Assembly (NCBI GenBank): GCA_045837725.1
Contig: JBEWZL010000064.1
Coordinates: 310,001-374,000, forward strand
Length of the DNA stretch: 64,000 nt
Direction: 5' to 3'
Origin: Vermamoeba vermiformis
Taxonomy: Eukaryota
The position numbers were made by a program, and so were the translations under genes. Shown here in pieces: positions 43,691 to 55,133 of this stretch. Numbering within the stretch: the first letter of the stretch is position 1; each line of letters begins with the position of its first letter. Under the pieces are notes generated by a model. The model made no database searches, was not told the origin of the DNA, and was given only the letters and a program-made list of their open reading frames with translations.

Positions 43691-44716
43691 ATGAATACCA
43701 CAAACATGCATGGCCATATAGTGCTGTGTGATAGAAAACGTAATAAGCCATATGGCATCGACTGGGACTGCGATGCTAGCTATAAAAAACCGAAATTGCT
43801 GAAGACTGTCGAACCTGATCGAACTCAATCTGCGAAAGAAGAATACGAGAAGAACGAAGATAAATATACAGTATTCTCGCTACCTAAAGAGATTTACTCA
43901 CTGATATTACACCAGCTATCGAAGAATGATTTGCTGAGGTAAAATCCGCAACCAAATTTTACAAGTTTGGAAATTTAGATATCACTATTGTAAATTGATA
44001 TTATAGTCCCAAATAGTGAAGTACTTAGTTGATTAATAATCAAGAAGTTCAATTCTATTAATCACGATTTTTTGCAGTAAATCTAGGGTAAATTCATTAA
44101 CCAATTTACTGTAGTATTGAATTGGTCTGCAAGTCATGGCGATTACATTGCTGGAAAGTATTCAATACGTTTACGCTAGAGAAGGCTTCGGATAAAGTAT
44201 TCAAAGTCTGGCTGCCCAAATTAAACAAAACAGATCTGATCCGCTTGTCAATTCACGCAACACCAAATTTGACAGACCAAGGCTTTGCAGCATTATACGA
44301 ATTCAAAAACATACAAGAGCTAGACATTATTAATGCGCCTTCATTATCTTCAAGTTCATTTTCGGCGATCGGAATTCAATTCCCAAAGCTTCGAGTGCTG
44401 CGGATAAATAACTGTCATAATCTCACCAATCAGTCGTTAGAGACATTCACTAATCTCGTCCAACTTAAAAGCACTCAGTTTATGCGATTGCTCTGGCCTG
44501 TCAAACGACGGACTACAAAATCTGGCAAATCTGACCAAACTCAAGTCGCTGGATCTCGCTCGATGCTACAAATTAAATTTTAGCGGGCTCAGCATATTGA
44601 AAGACTTAACAGAGCTAGAATTATTAGATATGAGCTATTGCAATTGCGTCAACAAACGAAAACGGATCTTGAAAATGTTTCCAAAGCTTCAATATGTCTA
44701 TACGTACTCGCCATAG
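43691..44716 (+). CDS. F-box/LRR (FBXL-type) protein; +1 frameshift at 44467-44470
   Basis: F-box SLPKEIYSLILHQLSKNDLL|..LVCKSWR, followed by Cys-containing LRRs. Confidence 0.85.
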
Positions 44717-45111
44717 TGTTAATAGATCATAATACTAAATATGTGAGACTCAAAACTTGTACATTTGTAATATAATTAAAATTTAGAACTTTTAAATTGA
44801 ACTTTCGCGGGATCTGCTCCAAACAGCAGATCTGCGCCAAAATATGCCACCGCAACTTCACAGAACGGCCGATATTATGAAAACAGTCAGCGAATATGAA
44901 GCCGAAATTTCATTGAATACTGAAGTTGCCGTCTTTTGTCAAGGTTCGTACAAAACGACTGCGATTTATGGTAAGCTACCGGTTATTTACTATCATACGT
45001 ATCACTTCTCTTAGTATTGAAGAATATAGGAAAGTTTATTGACTAAGTGAAATGTAGGCCAGTACAAAATGATTGGACGGTACGCGCTCGCCGTAGAACG
45101 ATTAAATGGCA

Positions 45112-46005
45112 TTATTTCTTAGCGGAGAGCATCATTCTCATCATGGCTGCTGCAGGCTCAGGCAACGGATCAAAGTCAGTCGAGACACTAATGCGTTTGT
45201 ACTTGTCCAGATCCGCTTGTTGTTGGTGGAGGTGTCCTTGAACCATTGCAACGGAGTCAGATCCGAGAGGAATGCGCACGGGAGGACGTTCTAACGCGAG
45301 AATCTTTTCGATCGCGATTGGAAATCGAGCCGGATCTCCAACTTCAGCGCCTTTCATTCCCATCATCATCTGAATGGACTGCTTGACGACAGGATAGTCA
45401 TCGACATTAGGATTAGTTGCTTGAATACCCTTATCTCCGAAGCTCGTTTTGAACGTGCCTGGCTCGACAATAACGACTCGAATGTTGTGCGATGCGACCT
45501 CTTGTGCGAGTGCTTCTGAAAAGCCTTCAAGTGCAAACTTGCTAGCACTGTAGATTGAGGCAGCAGGCAATGGGACGACGCCCAAAGTAGAGCTTACTTG
45601 GATGATAGTGCCGCTGTGTTGTTTGCGCATGATGGGAAGTACAGCTTGACTCGTGTAAACAGCACCGAAGAAGTTCGTTTCCATCACTTGCTTCAGCTCT
45701 CGTTCGGTATAATTAGCAGCAGCTGTAGTGATAGCAAACCCAGCATTGTTGATAAGGACATCAATTCTTCCAAACTTTTCAGTTGTCTTGGCGATAGCGT
45801 TCTGGATCGAGCTAGGGTCGGTCACATCCAGAGTAACGGCAAGAGCTGTCTTCGGGAATTGAGCTTCAAAGTGCGATACCGAAGTAACATTTCTCGCAGT
45901 GACAGCAACATGATGACCTGCAGCGAGGAAGTGTTGAGCGAGACTGCGACCCAAACCACTTGAACAACCAGTGATGAGGAAGACTTGCTGAGTTGAAGAA
46001 GACAT
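45112..46005 (-). CDS. Classical short-chain dehydrogenase/reductase, intronless, copy 1
   Basis: Motifs TGCSSGLG, NNAG, YSASK and EPG. Confidence 0.95.
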   Translation of the reverse strand: MSSSTQQVFLITGCSSGLGRSLAQHFLAAGHHVAVTARNVTSVSHFEAQFPKTALAVTLDVTDPSSIQNAIAKTTEKFGRIDVLINNAGFAITTAAANYTERELKQVMETNFFGAVYTSQAVLPIMRKQHSGTIIQVSSTLGVVPLPAASIYSASKFALEGFSEALAQEVASHNIRVVIVEPGTFKTSFGDKGIQATNPNVDDYPVVKQSIQMMMGMKGAEVGDPARFPIAIEKILALERPPVRIPLGSDSVAMVQGHLHQQQADLDKYKRISVSTDFDPLPEPAAAMMRMMLSAKK

Positions 46006-46096
46006 TGCTAGGTAAGATAATAAGTACGTATGCGTGATGTTTGTTTGATTGCAACTTAAAGTAATTTAGAATGCCATTTATACTTTCACCAACGGG

Positions 46097-46121
46097 CGGA
46101 TCAATCACAACGGAGTAACGG
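46097..46121. promoter_or_regulatory. 25-bp element CGGATCAATCACAACGGAGTAACGG conserved upstream of both SDR copies (second copy 47426-47450)
   Basis: Exact match about 85-90 bp upstream of each ATG while the flanks diverge; contains two YAACGG (MYB-type) cores. Confidence 0.6.
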
Positions 46122-46446
46122 CGATATTTTGAGCATCGTATGTGCCTTCCTATTAAGGCAAGAGCTCCAAGTTTCGAACATTCCCTCCTCCTTCTAAAGG
46201 GTTCTTGCACGTGACTGAATCACAGGTCTGAAAGTTGTTGAAGCTTCTGGAGTGAGAGAGAAGAATCAATTTTCTGTGTTCTACGATTGCATAGCTTGCC
46301 CATCATTATTTTCAATATGAACATAGTGCACTAGCAAGAGATGTTGGGTTTAAATCGCTACCGTAATGCCAAAAGTTAGTAAGTTCAAAAAACGATGCCA
46401 GTTTATTAGCGGATTTTAATACAATTGTTATGAGAATAGGAACCTA

Positions 46447-47342
46447 TTATTTCTTAGTGGAGAGCATCATTCTCATCATCGCTGCTGCAGGCTCAGGCAA
46501 CGGATCAAAGTCAGTCGAGACACTAATGTGTTTGTACTTGTCCAGATCTGCTTGTTGTTGGTGGAGGTGTCCTTGAACCATTGCAACGGAGTCAGATCCG
46601 AGGGGAATACGCAAAGGAGGCTGTTCGAGTGCCAAAATCTGTTCAATGGATGCTGCAAAGCGATCCGGATCACCCATCTCAGCACCTTTCAAACTCATCA
46701 TCATTTGAAATGATTGTTTGACAGCAGGGTATTCTTCGACGTTGGTGTTGGAAGGTTGTACAATCTTATCTCCAAAGCTAGTTTTGAATGTGCCTGGCTC
46801 GACAATAACGACTCGAATGTTGTGCGATGCGACCTCTTGTGCAAGTGCTTCTGAAAAACCTTCAAGTGCAAACTTGCTCGCGCTATAGATAGAGGCAGAG
46901 GGCAGCGATGTGACTCCTAGCGACGAGCTGATTTGAAGAATGGCACCGCTGTGTTGCTTGCGCATGATGGGAAGTACAGCTTGACTCGTGTAAACAGCAC
47001 CAAAGAAGTTCGTTTCCATCACTTGCTTTAGTTCTCGTTCAGTGTAGTTCTCGGCCGCAGTGTTAATACTGAATCCAGCATTATTAATTAGAACGTCAAT
47101 TCTTCCAAATTTTTCAGTTGTCTTGGCGATTGCGTTTGAGATCGAGTTGTGATCAGTCACATCCAAAGCAATGGCAAGAGCTGTCTTCGGGAATTGAGTT
47201 TCAAAGTTTCGACTACTGAAGGGATATTTCTTGCAGTGACAGCAACATGATGACCAGCAGCGAGGAAATGTTGAGCGAGACTATGACCCAAACCACTCGA
47301 ACAGCCGGTGATGAGAAAGACTTGCTTAGTTGAAGAAGACAT
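46447..47342 (-). CDS. Short-chain dehydrogenase/reductase, intronless, copy 2 (two extra bases at 47207-47213 relative to copy 1)
   Basis: Highly similar tandem paralog of 45112-46005. Confidence 0.88.
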
Positions 47343-47985
47343 TTGTTTAATAGTACTTGTTGTGTTGTTTAGTGTATTTTGGTTGATATTACTACTAGCT
47401 TTGTTCTGGCATTTTATGTTGGACACGGATCAATCACAACGGAGTAACGGAGGATTGTTAGTGCACATTCGTTGGTGTCCAAATAAGGCAGTTTCTAGGA
47501 AGTCGAACATTCTAACAACATTCGACCCATCATAGTCGAGCACGTGGCATATGCAAGACAACTAATCACGTGGCAACATAGCGCGAGACGGCTCTCCGCT
47601 GGTATTTTGTTCTAAATGCAATATTATCACTACAACAACTAAGCCAATATTACACATGAAACTTGTTGGTTAAGTAAGGTACTAAAAGACGATATCAAGG
47701 CTGATCTGCGATTCCGAAATTATTTTCATACTTCAGAAAATCGCTCTGACCGTCAAATTATTTCCAACAATTCGTGCTTACTCATTTAATTAACTTGCGA
47801 TCTCGCTCTGAAACTGCCCTGCAGTTAAAGAAATGAGATCGCCTGAACGTTTTTGTCGCCACAAAAACAGGCGTTCGTTAGTCTTTTATATATTATCGAT
47901 TAATTATCTTGCCATTACATCAATAACTAGTGATAATTAAATTTCTCGCCGCATTAATGCCAATTTTTTTTAAGAAGCAACAAAC

Positions 47986-48324
47986 ATGGCGAAGTTACTG
48001 AGCCCGAAGGAATTAGAACAAATTGAACAAGGCTTTAGACACGTTATGAAAATTAATAGTAATAATCCCGCGAAACAGTTACCGCGCAGGAGAGGAAGAA
48101 AACGGATCCAACCAGAAGAGATTCAAACAGAAAATTGTAAAATTGAAAGTGTTGGCTTAGATCCATTAGAAACTCTAATAAGTACCATTGAAGAGCGATT
48201 AGAGTACCTTAGCCAATATAAGAAGTTCACTAAGCCGGAAGAAATTTCTACGGCTCAACAGATCTTGCAACAAGTCGCCTATTTAATCAATCTCCTGCAC
48301 GATTATAATAAATCGATCAAATAA
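47986..48324 (+). CDS. Small uncharacterised protein with a basic RRRGRKR patch
   Basis: 112-aa ORF with good start context (AAACATGG) and AT-rich flanks; no recognisable family. Confidence 0.5.
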   Translation: MAKLLSPKELEQIEQGFRHVMKINSNNPAKQLPRRRGRKRIQPEEIQTENCKIESVGLDPLETLISTIEERLEYLSQYKKFTKPEEISTAQQILQQVAYLINLLHDYNKSIK

Positions 48325-48384
48325 AATAACTATTATTTATTATAGCTATTATGATATATACTCATTTTTCCTCGAACTTTCAAC

Positions 48385-51062
48385 CTAGCACCAACCAATT
48401 GCTTGCCCATCAGATCTGCAAACGAAAATCAATTAAAACAGTGCATCCCTATATAAATATATTATACGTACCTAGGATCGCATCCGGCAGCTAATACGCC
48501 GGTAACAGGATCACGTCTGATAATTTGTCCTCGTCCAAAGACAGATCTGTCGTACCAGCCTTTCACCAAGACAGCCTGCTTGTGACCCAACTTCTGCAAA
48601 GCTAGAACTGTCTCAGGAGCAATTCCTTCTTCAATCAACAACGTGCCTCCGAGCGCATCGCCGCCCTCAATACAAAATCGTGGCGAGTCCAAAGCTAGGA
48701 TATTATAGTGTTACATAACTAAGGCTCAAAGTGACGTGCTCACGCGTACCTTGTTGCGGATCCATGCCAAAGTCAATCATGTTAGATATAACCTGAACGT
48801 GTCCTTGAGGCTAAAGTAATGATATTGAGTACCATATTATTATGTACTATTATCATAAGAGTAGTTACGCACTTGCATAAATCCACCCATAACTCCGAAG
48901 GGACAAAACAATTTGCCGTCTTTCACAGCCATTCCAGGAATAATCGTATGATAAGGTCGCTTGTTTGGCTCGACGACATTAGGATGATCTGCAAATATAT
49001 AGGTCCTATTAGTATCACACGAATTACTAAATGTCGAAAAAAGTCACGTGCCTGGATTGAGACTGAAATTGTGTCCGCGGTTCTGAAGAGTAAATCCGCA
49101 GCCTTTTGGAATTATTCCGGTGCCAAAGCCCATGTAGTTCGAGTTGATGAAACTGCACGCACTGCCCGTACCATCCACGACACAAAAATAGACTGTGCTG
49201 GACTTGGTGATGCCAGGGTATCCATGCTCCTAATAAGGATATATTTGGTTATTATATAGAGCATATAATGACGTCAATTGCTTACTATTGTTGGATTAGC
49301 TTGCGAGGCATCAAATAATTTCCTTCGCTCGGAGGCATATTCAGGTGACAATAGCTCTATATCGCAATATTATTATCGTGCACTTGATATGTATTTTACG
49401 TCTACTTGCCTTTTATGGGAATATTGGAGAATTTCGGGTCCGTGACGTACCAGCGGGTGTCAGCAAAGGCGAGACGAAGTGCCTCCACCAACAAGTGCAA
49501 GTGTTCGGTCGAGTGATATTTATACGATGCAACATCGAAGCCGTTCAAAATATTCAACGCCAGCAGCGCTGTCAAGCCTTGGCCGTTCGGTGGCAATTCG
49601 TAAATGTCAACGCCTAAGTGACACGTGTCAAACCAGAACTAAATACCCAATTTGAGTGCTATATATCGTACCTCTATAGTTGACACTAATAGGCGTATCT
49701 ATCGTCGATTGATGTGCTTTGAGGTCTTCAAGGGTCAAAAGACCTCCCAACGAGTGAACCACATCCACAATGGCTTGAGCCACAGGACCCTTCATAATGA
49801 TTGAATACTAACAAAACAATAGTACCTCCTTCAAATATACTCTGTACCTCGTAAAATCCTTTCTTTCCATGAGCTGCCAATAGTTTGAAAGTGTTCGCTA
49901 AAGTCGGGTTCTTCATCAATTCACCTGCACGCAGCACGCAATTAGAACCATATATTATTAGTTTAAATACGCTCTTACCGGCCTTGGGAGGCTTGCCATT
50001 CAATAAGAGCTCATCGGCATTCTCTGTTTGTTGTAATTGGGCGAGTCCATTAGCCCACAAACGCGACGTCATTTGTGACACTGGAAAGCCCTAAAATAAC
50101 TACAGTAAGCTTCTATATTTAAATATAATATGTAAATAATACGTACTTGCTCGGCTAATTGAATAGCAGGTTCTAAAATCTGCGCAAGAGTCAAGTTGCC
50201 ACTGCCAAAGTTTTCAATAGTGTCGCACCATCCTGCTGCAGCTCTACAATACCACGTTATAATAGAGTACTTAACCCATCGACCTAACATAAATAATGCG
50301 GTATTGAACTATATTGAATTATATGTAACATCGCTAGTGTGATTCAAAAGTCGCTTGTAACAACGGATAATTTTTTCATATTAAGATGAAGATCATCATG
50401 GGCTAATATGGCCGAAAAAGGATAACCATATGAATATTCTCATACCCAGGTACTGTTACAGTAAGTGCACTGAATGGAGACCACGGATTTGCTTCGTTAA
50501 AACCGAGCGCATGAAGTCTTTCGAGTGTGAGTGCACTAGGAGCGCGACCGCTAGTAAAAAATAGATATTAATTAACTATTATAACATGTTTTATAGGAAT
50601 TTAAAGCTATGGCAATATGAGATGCTTACCTGCCGTTTAGACCTTTAACAGATCCGTCTTTGGAGTTATAATACAAGCAAAAGCAATCACCTCCGATGCC
50701 TAGTAATATGAGGTTATATATTTACGAGTACTATAAGCGGATTTGATTTTAAGTAGCGTACCTGTAGAGGTTGGTTCTGTAACATTCAAAGCAGCGGCTA
50801 TTGCCACGGCTGCATCAGCGCAATTTCCTCCTTGCTTTAGTATTCGCATACCAATCTCGCTAGCTATAGGCTGGATGTAATATTAGCAATTAGTACAAGC
50901 TGGATCTGAAGACGTCATAAAGATTTCCGATGATACTTCATAATCATATAATTATTTATTATTTTTAATAATAAAATAACGATCATCCAATCATACCTGG
51001 CTACATGAGACCATTCCCTTAGTTCCATAAACAACAGATCTTCTCGAGTTGTAAAAAGCCAT
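48385..51062 (-). CDS. Gamma-glutamyltransferase family protein (cytosolic/YwrD-like, no signal anchor), multi-exon
   Basis: Motifs [50 protein letters not shown] (Thr nucleophile), KRPYHTIIP and [12 protein letters not shown]. Confidence 0.93.
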
Positions 51063-51144
51063 CGATTTTTCTATTTTCGAAGGGACCTTACTGGATTATA
51101 TATGTATTAGGATCTTAATAAAAGGGCACTTAGAGCTTAAACAG

Positions 51145-51375
51145 TACTCCTGCGTTTGTGTTGCTAGTCGTTTGGAGTTCGTGCAAATAGCTTATCAACA
51201 TTTTGCGCAGGATGTGAACACAACGCTACCCGCAACTTGAACGACGCTAACTCATTGCACCCTGAGTTAGCATTGCACGTCAAGTATTGTTGCAGGCGCG
51301 GTAAGATAAAAATACTAAAGAAATCTGGGGTTTCATCTGGAAAATGAATCTGGGCTTGCTTTGACGAGCAAAAAT
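51145..51375 (+). ncRNA. Candidate structured ncRNA with a U1 stem-loop II-like hairpin
   Basis: 8-bp perfect stem GCTAACTC/GAGTTAGC closing the 10-nt loop ATTGCACCCT; a second ATTGCAC at 51272; a separate hairpin TCCTGCG/CGCAGGA (51148/51206). Confidence 0.4.
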
Positions 51376-51801
51376 TTAAAAATATTATTTTCGTGTATTG
51401 TCCTATTACTAGGGATCAGAATGACGATTGTTAATTTTACTTGAAGCAGGCTTGACAAGTAAAAATAATAGATCTTCTTACAACGGTCTTGGATGTCGAA
51501 TACTGGCAAATGCGAGCTTGCTCAATATTATACCTGCCTAATTTCAATCCACAACGATGATCAAAGACGCGCACGCACTATAATATATCAAGGAAAAGCT
51601 TTCAATGCTGAACAGCTTGATGCCCCATCCCATCCTTTGTCTAAGCTTACGCACGCCTCATTCATGGCCTTATTGACTTATTTATGAGCACTTTCTTGCG
51701 TGTTAGTCGTACTTTTCTTAGCTTTCGCGTCGCTGCGTTATCAAACCACAACAAATTTTGCTCAGATGTGCCCATAAAATGAAAATTTTGGACTCGTTTA
51801 G

Positions 51802-52000
51802 ATCACCTTCTCGGCCTTTTGGCTATGATCAAGTGTAGTATCTGTTCTTATCAGTTTAATCTCTGATAGCTGGTCTATGGACCGGCACAAGATTAAATTT
51901 ATTTTTTGAGAGGGATGCAGTTTAAAAACCTGCAGCTTGCTGTGGGTTCTGTATCGCGGATCTTCTCGGCATTGCACAATATGGCCTTGCTAGGTCCACC
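51802..52000 (+). ncRNA. U2: U2 spliceosomal snRNA
   Basis: CTTCTCGGCCTTTTGGCTATGATCAAGTGTAGTATCTGTTCTTATCAG (branch-pairing GTAGTA), a U-rich Sm site near 51896-51908, and stem-loop IV with an ATTGCA loop. Confidence 0.97.
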
Positions 52001-52398
52001 TCCACCTTCCAAAATATCAAAAAATATTAAAACTGGGGGCTTTGGGTAATGGGTTAGTACCGGGATAAAGGGAGATCAGGGTTGTAACAGCAATCGCAAG
52101 AAGATTTGGGTTGCGTGATCTAATTGGGTCTGTATGCGTCGATCAGCACTCTCAAGAGTAAGGTTACAACGGGGGTGAACGGAGGTGGTGTATTAGTTGT
52201 AGACTCGCTGCCAGTTCGTTTGGTAACATGCGCGCCTTTTTTTTGTTTTTCATCCGATCTTTCTTGAGCACTGGGCTCCTCTTGGGATTATTGGTTTTTT
52301 ATTCCAACAGAAGGTTTCGAATTGAATACAGGAGATATCTTACTATAAATATATCACGAATACAGATCAAACAAAAAAATTACAAGCTGGATGTATCT

Positions 52399-54950
52399 TT
52401 AGTGCTTGCTGGGAGGGGGTGGGGGAGTCTCACCGCGGGCAATAGCCTCTTGATATTTACGAATACGAGCCTCCAATTCGGGTCTGAAGTGGCGGATCAA
52501 GCCTTGAACGGGCCAAGCAGCAGCGTCACCCAAAGCGCAAATGGTGTGACCTTCGATTTGGTAGGTCAATTGCTATAAAAGGAAATAACATTAGCACGTG
52601 ACGACGTTATGATAAGCTAGATCCTGTGAGCCTAAACGTACCTCAAGCATATCAATCTCGTCGGGCTTGGCGTTGCCTTGGACCATACGTTGCATGATGG
52701 ACCACAACCAATTAGTGCCTTCACGGCAAGGCGTGCATTGACCGCATGACTCGTGGGCGTAGAACTCGCTGAATCGGCAAATAGCTTCAACAATGTCCGT
52801 AGACTTGTTCATCACAATGACGGCGGCAGTACCAAGACCTGACTTGACATCAGCCAAGGCATCGAAGTCCATCCTATAATAAGAAACCATCATTAGCACG
52901 TGGCACTATCGAGTAGTAGCATGCGCGCAAAGGGCTTACAAGACGTCGTTGCAAATGCGTTGGGGCAAGATAGGGACGGAAGAACCTCCGGGCACAATGC
53001 CGAGCAAGTTGTCCCAGCCACCGATAACTCCACCACAGTGCTTCTCGATCAAGTCCTTCAAAGGAATTGACATCTCTTCTTCGACTGTGCAAGGCTTGTT
53101 CACGTGACCAGAAATGCAGAACAACTTGGTACCAGTGTTGTTCTTGCGACCGAAAGAGGCGAACCATTCACCACCACTAATACAAGCAAATTAATACAAA
53201 TGCATTATTTCGTTAATAGGCCTCGAGTAGGTGTGTTATATATAATGGTAGGCCGGAGATATTATTAAGAATTGAACGTACCGTCTGCAAATAGTGGGGG
53301 CGACGGCAATTGTTTCGACGTTAGTGACGGTAGTAGGGCAACCGTAGAGACCGGCGTTAGCAGGGAATGGAGGCTATTAATAGGCACATTATTAATATAC
53401 AAATGACTTTGAGCTGGTGCTTGTTGTTAGCACGGCCAAGTTTCGCAAAGTTTACCTTTAAACGGGGCTTGCCTTGTTTGCCTTCAAGACTTTCAATCAA
53501 CGCAGTTTCTTCACCGCAAATGTACGCGCCACTTCCACGGTGCACGTAGACGTCATATTGGTAACCAGTGCCGAAGCAGTTGTTGCCCAAGAAACCCTCT
53601 GTTGAAAATAATTTTAATTAACATTATTGTATGAACTGATTAAGCGCTTATTTGCGGGTAATATTTGTTATTGATCGTGTTTAAGCGTTGATTAATAATA
53701 AAAAATACGTCTAGCGTAATTGAGGTAAATCTGTATCGCGTGAGATCTTGCAAACTCTCAGCAATTTCGAAATTGAACGAGGACTACGATCGATATTAAA
53801 TAGGTATCTAGTCCGACACGTACTCTTGTAAGCCTCATCAATGGCACGTTCAAGAGCGTTAGCTTCAACGTTGAATTCTCCTCGGATGTAGATGTAAGCT
53901 GTTAACGAAAGACAAGATCATTAGCAAATTTGATGGTAATAGCAAGAATATATTATACATACCAGCGCGGGCACGCATAGCAACACCAGCGATCAAAGCA
54001 CCTTCAATCAATTTGTGGGGATCGTGTCGCATGATCTCGCGATCCTTGCAAGTACCAGGTTCTCCTTCGTCAGCATTAATAACCAAGTATGAAGGTCTAT
54101 AATATTATACATCGTTAGCGTATATTTACATTTCAAACAGAGTTAATCTATAATAAAACGAGGATCCGTTACAAAGCAAATAATAAAATTGAAAATTTGC
54201 TTCTATTAGTAGATAATTATAATACATGCCTGCCATCGGATACTTTAGGCATAAAAGACCATTTGAGGCCAGAAGGGAAACCAGCACCTCCTCGACCACG
54301 CAAGCCAGAGGTTTTGACTTCGTTGATGATCCAGTCAGGACCATTTGTGATAATATCTTTAGTTCGGTACCAATCACCCTATAATAGTCAATTATTAGTT
54401 ATATGCATTATTTTAAACGAGTTTATAATGTTGACAGTGATTTCTGGATCGTAAATAAAATTTTTGTTTTTGATAATCGCATCTAGGCCATAAATATTAT
54501 TCTAAAATTATAAATCATACAGAGCACGATAATATATTATTTTAATATGGATTTTTGAGGCTTAATTAATTTTCTTACTCGTTTCATGGCACCATCTATG
54601 AACGGGTCTTGCTGTCCGTATAAATTTGTGAAAATTCTGTCCTTATCCTTCAAGTTGCCATATACACGCTTAGGAGGTTGAGCAGCAGTGGTTTGACCAG
54701 CGGCAGGAGCAGCTTGGGCTTGTGGTTTATTAGCTGCCGGATTTGGTGCAGCGGTCGAATAAGCTCTAGCAGTAACTCCGAGTGTTTTTCGGATGTTGCA
54801 GCGTCGGCCTAAATGAAATAATATTATTATATATTTTTTTGAATATTATTCAATCGTTTCTAGTCCGTTCACTAATCGTTGCTAAATCTGTCATTATTGT
54901 GGTAAACAAATCGTACTTAATCGTCCAACAGCCTTGAATAAGTGACTCAT
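52399..54950 (-). CDS. NDUFV1: NADH:ubiquinone oxidoreductase 51-kDa flavoprotein subunit, multi-exon
   Basis: Mitochondrial presequence [14 protein letters not shown].., [45 protein letters not shown] and [12 protein letters not shown]. Includes a GC-AG intron at 54229-54097. Confidence 0.98.
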
Positions 54951-55133
54951 CGTGTATTGTGTTGGATCCGAACAAAAAAAATAGAAGGTCTCCATCAAAT
55001 AACAGCCAAAAGTCGTTCACGAAAAAATTTGACCGCAAAATGTTTTTTTGAGCGTCAAATTTTAGCCCTAGTCTCGCAGCATCACGTTGTCAATATTTTA
55101 TATTTATTGTATGATAGTACCAGCACGTATGGA

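Follow-up and report, generated by a model that had tools for sequence, protein, structure and literature searches.

The spacer between a gamma-glutamyltranspeptidase (GGT) gene and the U2 small nuclear RNA (snRNA) gene in the analyzed DNA (the window, i.e. the entire stretch of 64,000 nucleotides) contains a 66-nt core that, in a comparison with one relative, shows the signs of purifying selection, is compatible with the plus strand and displays the recognition surface of stem-loop II (SLII) of U1 snRNA. Among the possible explanations of these features, the somewhat favored one is a plus-strand RNA hairpin that docks a protein of the U1A/U2B'' family. The preliminary description of this region had proposed a structured element with two U1A-type motifs, either a novel U1A/U2B''-binding non-coding RNA or a divergent snRNA. 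This proposal is partly supported, in that the alignment points to one conserved U1A-type hairpin, not two, and the element is not a recognizable snRNA. The new part is best filed as a putative docking hairpin of the U1A/U2B'' type whose context, the spacer beside a U2 gene, is new; with one relative at hand, the element is a lead rather than an established RNA gene.

The window is eukaryotic, with a G+C content of about 40% and numerous short GT-AG introns. On the left, the spacer is bounded by the first exon of the intron-rich GGT gene, which is located on the minus strand (start codon at 51062) and is transcribed away from the element; the identity of this gene is apparent from the PF01019 matches on six exon ORFs downstream (Pfam), and the pattern of exon and intron identity in the comparison with the relative agrees with this assignment. 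On the right, the spacer ends at the U2 gene, the only Rfam match in the whole window at E <= 1, and the right neighbor of U2 is a minus-strand gene for the 51-kDa subunit of complex I (Pfam). With the divergent GGT gene on the left and U2 on the right, the element thus sits in a 740-bp spacer (51063-51802; Table 1), at a distance from the GGT start codon of 165 nt in the window and about 279 nt in the relative. A short motif, GGGAC.TTAC (51083-51092 in the window, about 385-396 in the relative), precedes the GGT start codon by 20-30 nt in both sequences and is probably a core-promoter or leader element of GGT.

Table 1. Features in and around the GGT-U2 spacer (positions of the window; L001 is the metagenome contig used for comparison).
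Feature	Position	Strand	Description
GGT first exon	50997-51062	-	ORF; bounds the spacer on the left
TATA-like box TATATATG	51097-51104	+	Not conserved in L001
Look-alike of the U11 5' end, AAAAGGGC	51120-51127	+	MAFFT partner in L001 is the unrelated CGAACAAGATCG; spacer poorly alignable there
Upstream long hairpin	51144-51216	+	-26.5 kcal/mol; z -3.69 (+), z -2.18 (-)
Core extended hairpin	51226-51291	+	66 nt, 19 base pairs; bears the U1A-type apical loop
Apical stem-loop	51246-51271	+	26 nt; 8-bp stem, 10-nt loop, C:G closing pair
AUUGCAC heptamer	51254-51260	+	5' side of the apical loop; same in L001
Second ATTGCAC	51272-51278	+	Directly 3' of the apical stem
Partly conserved stretch 3' of the hairpin	51298-51344	+	6- and 7-nt indels between conserved pieces
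Invariant 13-mer TTCATCTGGAAAA	51332-51344	+	Closes the partly conserved 3' stretch
A/T-rich conserved block	51370-51393	+	Ends TTATTTT[C/A]G; about 80 nt downstream of the hairpin
U2 snRNA gene	51803-52004	+	Rfam RF00004, 149 bits, E 1e-30; the single RNA gene at gathering score

At the center of the element is the perfect 8-bp stem with a 10-nt AUUGCAC loop that had been singled out in the preliminary description and is found exactly where it was placed: GCTAACTC (51246-51253) forms eight Watson-Crick pairs out of eight with GAGTTAGC (51264-51271), enclosing the loop ATTGCACCCT (51254-51263). Folding also agrees with the extended stem drawn earlier below this hairpin (CTTGA.CG/CGTCAAG and GCAAC/GTTG). 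The stability of the region as a whole is a different matter: the 258-nt interval folds no better than shuffled sequences (z -1.15 and -0.96 on the plus and minus strands, respectively). The core hairpin has z -3.23 on the plus strand, and the z-scores of sub-hairpins, which were picked post hoc, range from -2.2 to -3.9. The region was originally chosen for its motif, and the likelihood of encountering such a structure by chance in a single sequence is not negligible: a 9-12-nt loop led by ATTGCAC on a stem of at least 8 bp arises in 8 of the 300 simulated 64-kb sequences (first-order Markov). The ATTGCAC heptamer itself is found 18 times on the two strands of the window vs an expectation of 11.7; of 100 shuffles, 7 reach the observed number. 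Taken by itself, the window presents features that exceed the chance expectation only mildly and could be a coincidence. With a covariance model of the core hairpin (R1), neither the window nor L001 yields another copy, and a repeat or mobile element was rejected because the core is not repeated in either sequence.

The relative comes from a scan anchored on a GGT exon, which returned 80 loci. The sole eukaryote-like syntenic relative among these is the metagenome contig L001 (5243 nt, G+C 0.385), with 93% amino-acid identity in the anchor exon and synteny over GGT and the next gene. The remaining 79 of the 80 loci contain no match to the core, and the seven that were checked are GC-rich (0.55-0.62). 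The exact two-motif pattern has 0 matches in metagenome contigs, and the 22-mer of the core is matched neither in the contigs of prokaryote genomes nor in those of viruses, where eukaryotes are not expected. In a search of sequencing runs with a 1101-nt query, none of the 23 listed runs contained half of the query words; the best shares, 0.09-0.17, are uninformative with respect to the candidate because they match what the 202-nt U2 gene alone contributes to the query.

In the global alignment of the window with L001 (40-nt alignment windows), the identity is 75-92% in exons and 28-55% in introns and most of the spacer, so that the divergence of introns and spacer is essentially saturated. The 40-nt alignment windows that start at 51221 and 51241 show 85% and 78% identity, respectively, and a single block of the spacer is alignable with blastn (51344-51226 vs L001 77-182, 78% over 119 nt, E 1e-19). 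Within the core (51226-51291 vs L001 117-182 on the minus strand), 57 of the 66 positions are identical (86%), with 0 indels, a conservation at the level of the exons; judging from this alignment, L001 raises the core hairpin, and the core hairpin alone, clearly above chance. All 19 base pairs of the core are held in both sequences (38 of 38 pair cells paired): 16 pairs are invariant, one has undergone a compensatory change (U-A to C-G) and two have changed on one side to G.U. The apical stem, GCCAATTC/GAGTTGGC in L001, includes a U-A to C-G and a C-G to U.G replacement. The check for covariation in related genomes that was suggested at the outset thus comes down to one relative, in which every stem change keeps pairing; with one relative only, covariation carries no statistical weight, and the shuffle control equals the observed value in 255 of 500 cases.

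The apical loop is more informative. The AUUGCAC heptamer, the closing C:G pair and the 10-nt length are all kept in L001, and the last three bases are CCU in the window vs UUC in L001, so that all three differences are found at the final 3 of the 10 loop positions, for which the odds under random placement are 1 in 120. It is this confinement of the loop changes to the three bases that U1A does not read that favors a protein-docking RNA hairpin, and the support is that of a prediction, derived from the earlier hypothesis and checked on L001 data that were unseen when the hypothesis was made. In terms of a U1A/U2B''/SNF-type site, the one relative leaves AUUGCAC and the C:G pair invariant, with 3 of 3 loop changes in the spacer bases and 3 of 3 changed pairs still paired. 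The second ATTGCAC reads ACTGCGT in L001 (3 of 7 bases changed); both of the motifs that had been announced are therefore present in the window and only the first is conserved.

The remaining features described 5' of the core behave in the same manner as the second motif, inasmuch as everything 5' of 51226 is unalignable or not conserved between the window and L001. The separate long hairpin, originally placed at 51148-51212, does exist as a stable structure at 51144-51216 but is not aligned in L001, where the identity over this interval is 28-52% (40-nt alignment windows) and an insertion of about 70 nt is present. The same applies to AAAAGGGC, noted in the preliminary description as resembling the 5' end of U11: it is there in the window, as stated, but has no counterpart in L001 and no Rfam U11 match. 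Because none of the three is conserved in L001, the second motif, the long hairpin and the U11-like end are outside the constrained unit.

On the 3' side, the A/T-rich block includes a 10-mer, AAAAATATTA (51378-51387), that recurs 16 nt past the 3' end of U2 (52020-52029) and is represented by 4 copies in the window vs 0.82 expected; the block and the 10-mer may be a 3'-end or termination signal, perhaps common to U2, but a similarity of such low complexity counts for little. The regions upstream of the element and of U2 share four 7-mers as potential promoter motifs vs an estimated 2.3 expected, which is about chance, and at the element itself, neither a promoter nor a cap-proximal motif, an Sm site or a terminator is assignable with confidence. 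Just past the A/T-rich block, there is a strong 13-bp hairpin (51431-51468, 92% complementary, 12-nt loop), about where L001 ends; the contig extends about 75 nt beyond the last conserved block. The terminal sequence of L001 (1-12), ATTTTGGAATTG, is similar to ATTTTGGA just before the start of U2 in the window, so that the contig may break at a U2 gene; the one 8-mer that is common to the two equals the chance expectation. Ten nucleotides ahead of the U2 start, outside the conserved unit, the window contains a perfect Sm-consensus-like sequence, AAUUUUGG (51785-51793).

Proteins of the U1A/U2B'' type are the textbook model for RNA recognition by RRM domains, and to our knowledge, the natural hairpins that they target in a conserved manner are U1 SLII, U2 stem-loop IV (SLIV) and the vertebrate-specific polyadenylation inhibition element (PIE). 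U1A is described as contacting AUUGCAC and the closing C:G of U1 SLII, and changes of the loop purines as costing the human protein 5-6 kcal/mol (PMC2203988). The two snRNA hairpins are reported to differ in geometry, with a 10-nt loop and C:G closure in U1 SLII vs an 11-nt loop and U:G or U:U closure in U2 SLIV, the fly and human versions of which carry an AUUGCAG loop (PMC5992148). The element resembles U1 SLII in the 10-nt loop starting with AUUGCAC, the Watson-Crick C:G closure, the long irregular lower stem and the three spacer bases that vary on the 3' side of the loop; unlike U1 SLII, it is located outside any U1 and comes without a 5'-splice-site-complementary end, a recognizable stem-loop I or a canonical Sm site. 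With U2 SLIV, it shares an AUUGCA-type loop for the same RRM family, but its geometry is that of the U1 type and its location is outside the U2 gene. That gene is 430 nt downstream of the element, and its SLIV carries ATTGCAC (51971-51977); given that U2 SLIV bears the U1-type heptamer here, the spacer hairpin, U1 and U2 might all be read by one protein. Human CLIP-type data are reported to hint at additional AUUGCAC sites (PMC13175842).

The PIE, in the 3' untranslated region of the vertebrate U1A pre-mRNA, where two U1A heptamers occupy internal loops of a single stem shortly before the poly(A) signal, also combines a U1A-type heptamer with a structured stem outside an snRNA; the element further resembles it in the A/T-rich block downstream and, in the window only, in the second heptamer beside the stem. 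However, the PIE is reported to require two U1A molecules (PMC5071671), and since the second site is not conserved and no RRM gene was found nearby (0 RRM-domain ORFs among the 57 scanned with Pfam at 44101-60594, hence none within about 7 kb), the element does not qualify as a PIE. It also differs from the PIE in having no plus-strand coding gene upstream and no Rfam PIE match. The C-terminal RRM of the 65K protein is U1A-like. In the U11/U12 65K protein, this domain is reported to read U12 stem-loop III and the distal 3' stem-loop of U6atac (PMC4980772), which, as predicted for the element, are short hairpins bound by an RRM protein; minor spliceosomal RNAs have been reported from early-diverging fungi (PMC2396436). 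Unlike U12 and U6atac, the element has no Rfam match and its flanks lack the conserved functional ends of these RNAs.

That the hairpin is stem-loop II of a highly divergent U1 (or U11) snRNA gene of this lineage appears highly unlikely, although the hairpin has exactly the loop, closing pair and loop length of U1 SLII, another snRNA gene, U2, is adjacent, the TATATATG box and the upstream hairpin could serve as a promoter and stem-loop I, and the proposed likeness of AAAAGGGC to the U11 5' end would fit. The end of U1 that is complementary to the 5' splice site is ACUUACCUG, and the conserved 5' end of U11 is AAAAAGGGC. A search for the U1 5' end, ACTTACCTG, with at most one mismatch finds nothing in the window from 50632 up to the hairpin, and upstream of the hairpin in L001, there are only 2-mismatch matches. 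The region 5' of 51226, which in such a gene is expected to be the most conserved part, is the one that cannot be aligned between the relatives. The Rfam search gave 0 matches of the candidate to any family, U1, U11 and PIE included, at E <= 10 (50600-51800 and 51090-51480 of the window; 1-520 of L001), and at this threshold, U1, yeast U1 (RF00003/RF00488) and U11 (RF00548) were rejected for the candidate in both sequences. The canonical Sm site, reported as PuAU4-6GPu between two hairpins (PMC2396436), is absent from the conserved unit, where the sole conserved U-run, AUUUUCG in the window and AUUUUAG in L001, has no conserved hairpin 3' of it. The absence of a U1 5' end and of a clear Sm site, noticed originally in the window, is hence borne out in both sequences and, together with the lack of Rfam matches, leaves the 'divergent snRNA' half of the original proposal unsupported; the other half, a U1A/U2B''-binding RNA, gains from the mimicry of U1 SLII and the expected substitution pattern in L001. 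Other RNA classes that were tried and rejected include U12, U6atac, U5, U3, H/ACA and telomerase-template RNAs, with no Rfam match and look-alike motifs that are not kept in L001, and tRNA, of which none was found.

The conservation of the core could also have causes other than a plus-strand RNA. Selection at the DNA level, on an enhancer or promoter of GGT or U2 in which the palindrome and the AUUGCAC loop are incidental, is unlikely: the position in a divergent promoter spacer, at the above distances from the GGT start codon, and the conserved blocks of 22 and 13 nt would be explained, but 66 conserved nucleotides with 19 kept pairs would make a long factor site, both one-sided changes spoil the DNA palindrome while the G.U pairing of a plus-strand RNA survives, and the center of the palindrome is fixed at exactly the seven bases that U1A reads and variable at the other three. 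The strand can be gauged from the folds and the substitutions. In the plus orientation, the core folds at -21.8 kcal/mol in the window and -20.6 in L001. A minus-strand structure, such as an extended 5' leader of the GGT mRNA or an antisense transcript, would be the more stable one in the window (-29.7 kcal/mol, z -5.65), but in L001, its fold falls to -16.8 kcal/mol (z +0.24). Both one-sided stem changes yield G.U pairs on the plus strand and would yield A.C mismatches if the minus strand were the RNA. A leader would contain four ATGs ahead of the GGT start codon (CAT on the plus strand, near 51198, 51252, 51270 and 51333), and the loop would read GUGCAAU, with no known reader; a minus-strand RNA is, overall, quite unlikely. 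As read directly from the alignment, the replacement of U by C at 51273, beside the 8-bp stem, would be wobble-compatible on the minus strand; as this change would suit the minus strand, the plus strand is favored, not proven.

A short protein-coding exon or micropeptide is extremely improbable. In both sequences, one plus-strand frame runs through the core without a stop codon, with 19 of 21 residues identical, but a minus-strand frame is comparable (18 of 21); because the frames on both strands are equally identical, there is no codon-specific signal, and the protein identity mirrors that of the nucleotides. The plus-strand frame has no ATG in the window, and in L001, the interval from the preceding stop codon to the block contains no ATG and no AG acceptor; further, a 7-nt indel shifts the frame ahead of the next conserved block, the 5 spacer ORFs match 0 Pfam families, and no homologues were found among proteins of 32-104 or 105-2000 residues. 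On the strength of frames, Pfam and protein relatives, a coding exon was rejected. There is, finally, very little likelihood that the core is a functionless, slowly diverged stretch with a coincidental hairpin and motif. The single relative and the 8 in 300 simulated windows that produce a motif hairpin by chance are compatible with such an origin, but the flanks are saturated at 28-55% identity vs 86% in the core, every stem change keeps pairing and the loop changes spare AUUGCAC.

On the favored reading of a docking hairpin on the plus strand, the apical stem-loop, a copy of U1 SLII, would most likely provide a high-affinity docking site for the U1A/U2B''/SNF-family RRM protein of this organism. 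The transcript would originate from the spacer between the divergent GGT gene and the U2 gene and could start in the divergent promoter region of GGT or be a small transcription unit of its own. Its role is a matter of speculation: it might buffer free U1A/U2B'' near the U2 gene or, via the conserved A/T-rich block, control the 3'-end formation of the host transcript. A more specific version, which we put forward as a tentative possibility at most, is that the hairpin is part of an autonomous small nuclear RNA, a third natural client of the U1A/U2B'' family beside U1 and U2. Such an RNA would be encoded beside the U2 gene and would evolve freely outside the protein-docking hairpin; it could chaperone or buffer free U1A/U2B'' for the assembly of the U2 snRNP or could tie the level of U1A/U2B'' to the activity of the U2 gene. 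If the docking hairpin is real, the extra-spliceosomal docking of the U1A/U2B'' family would be older and wider than the vertebrate U1A autoregulation, and a single 26-nt hairpin would offer a compact, testable handle on the role of free U1A/U2B''. A promoter element, or a palindrome that is never transcribed, would be of local interest only.

Two further observations concern the window beyond the spacer. Comparison of 44780-48160 with L001 3250-3684 reveals about 3.4 kb that is present in the window and absent from L001; this stretch includes two tandem short-chain dehydrogenase paralogues on the minus strand (45112-46065 and 46447-47280). Elsewhere on the minus strand, two large, repeat-rich paralogous ORFs (22029-23765 and 27037-28476), which share a nearly identical C-terminal tail, look like leucine-rich repeat proteins when judged by eye.
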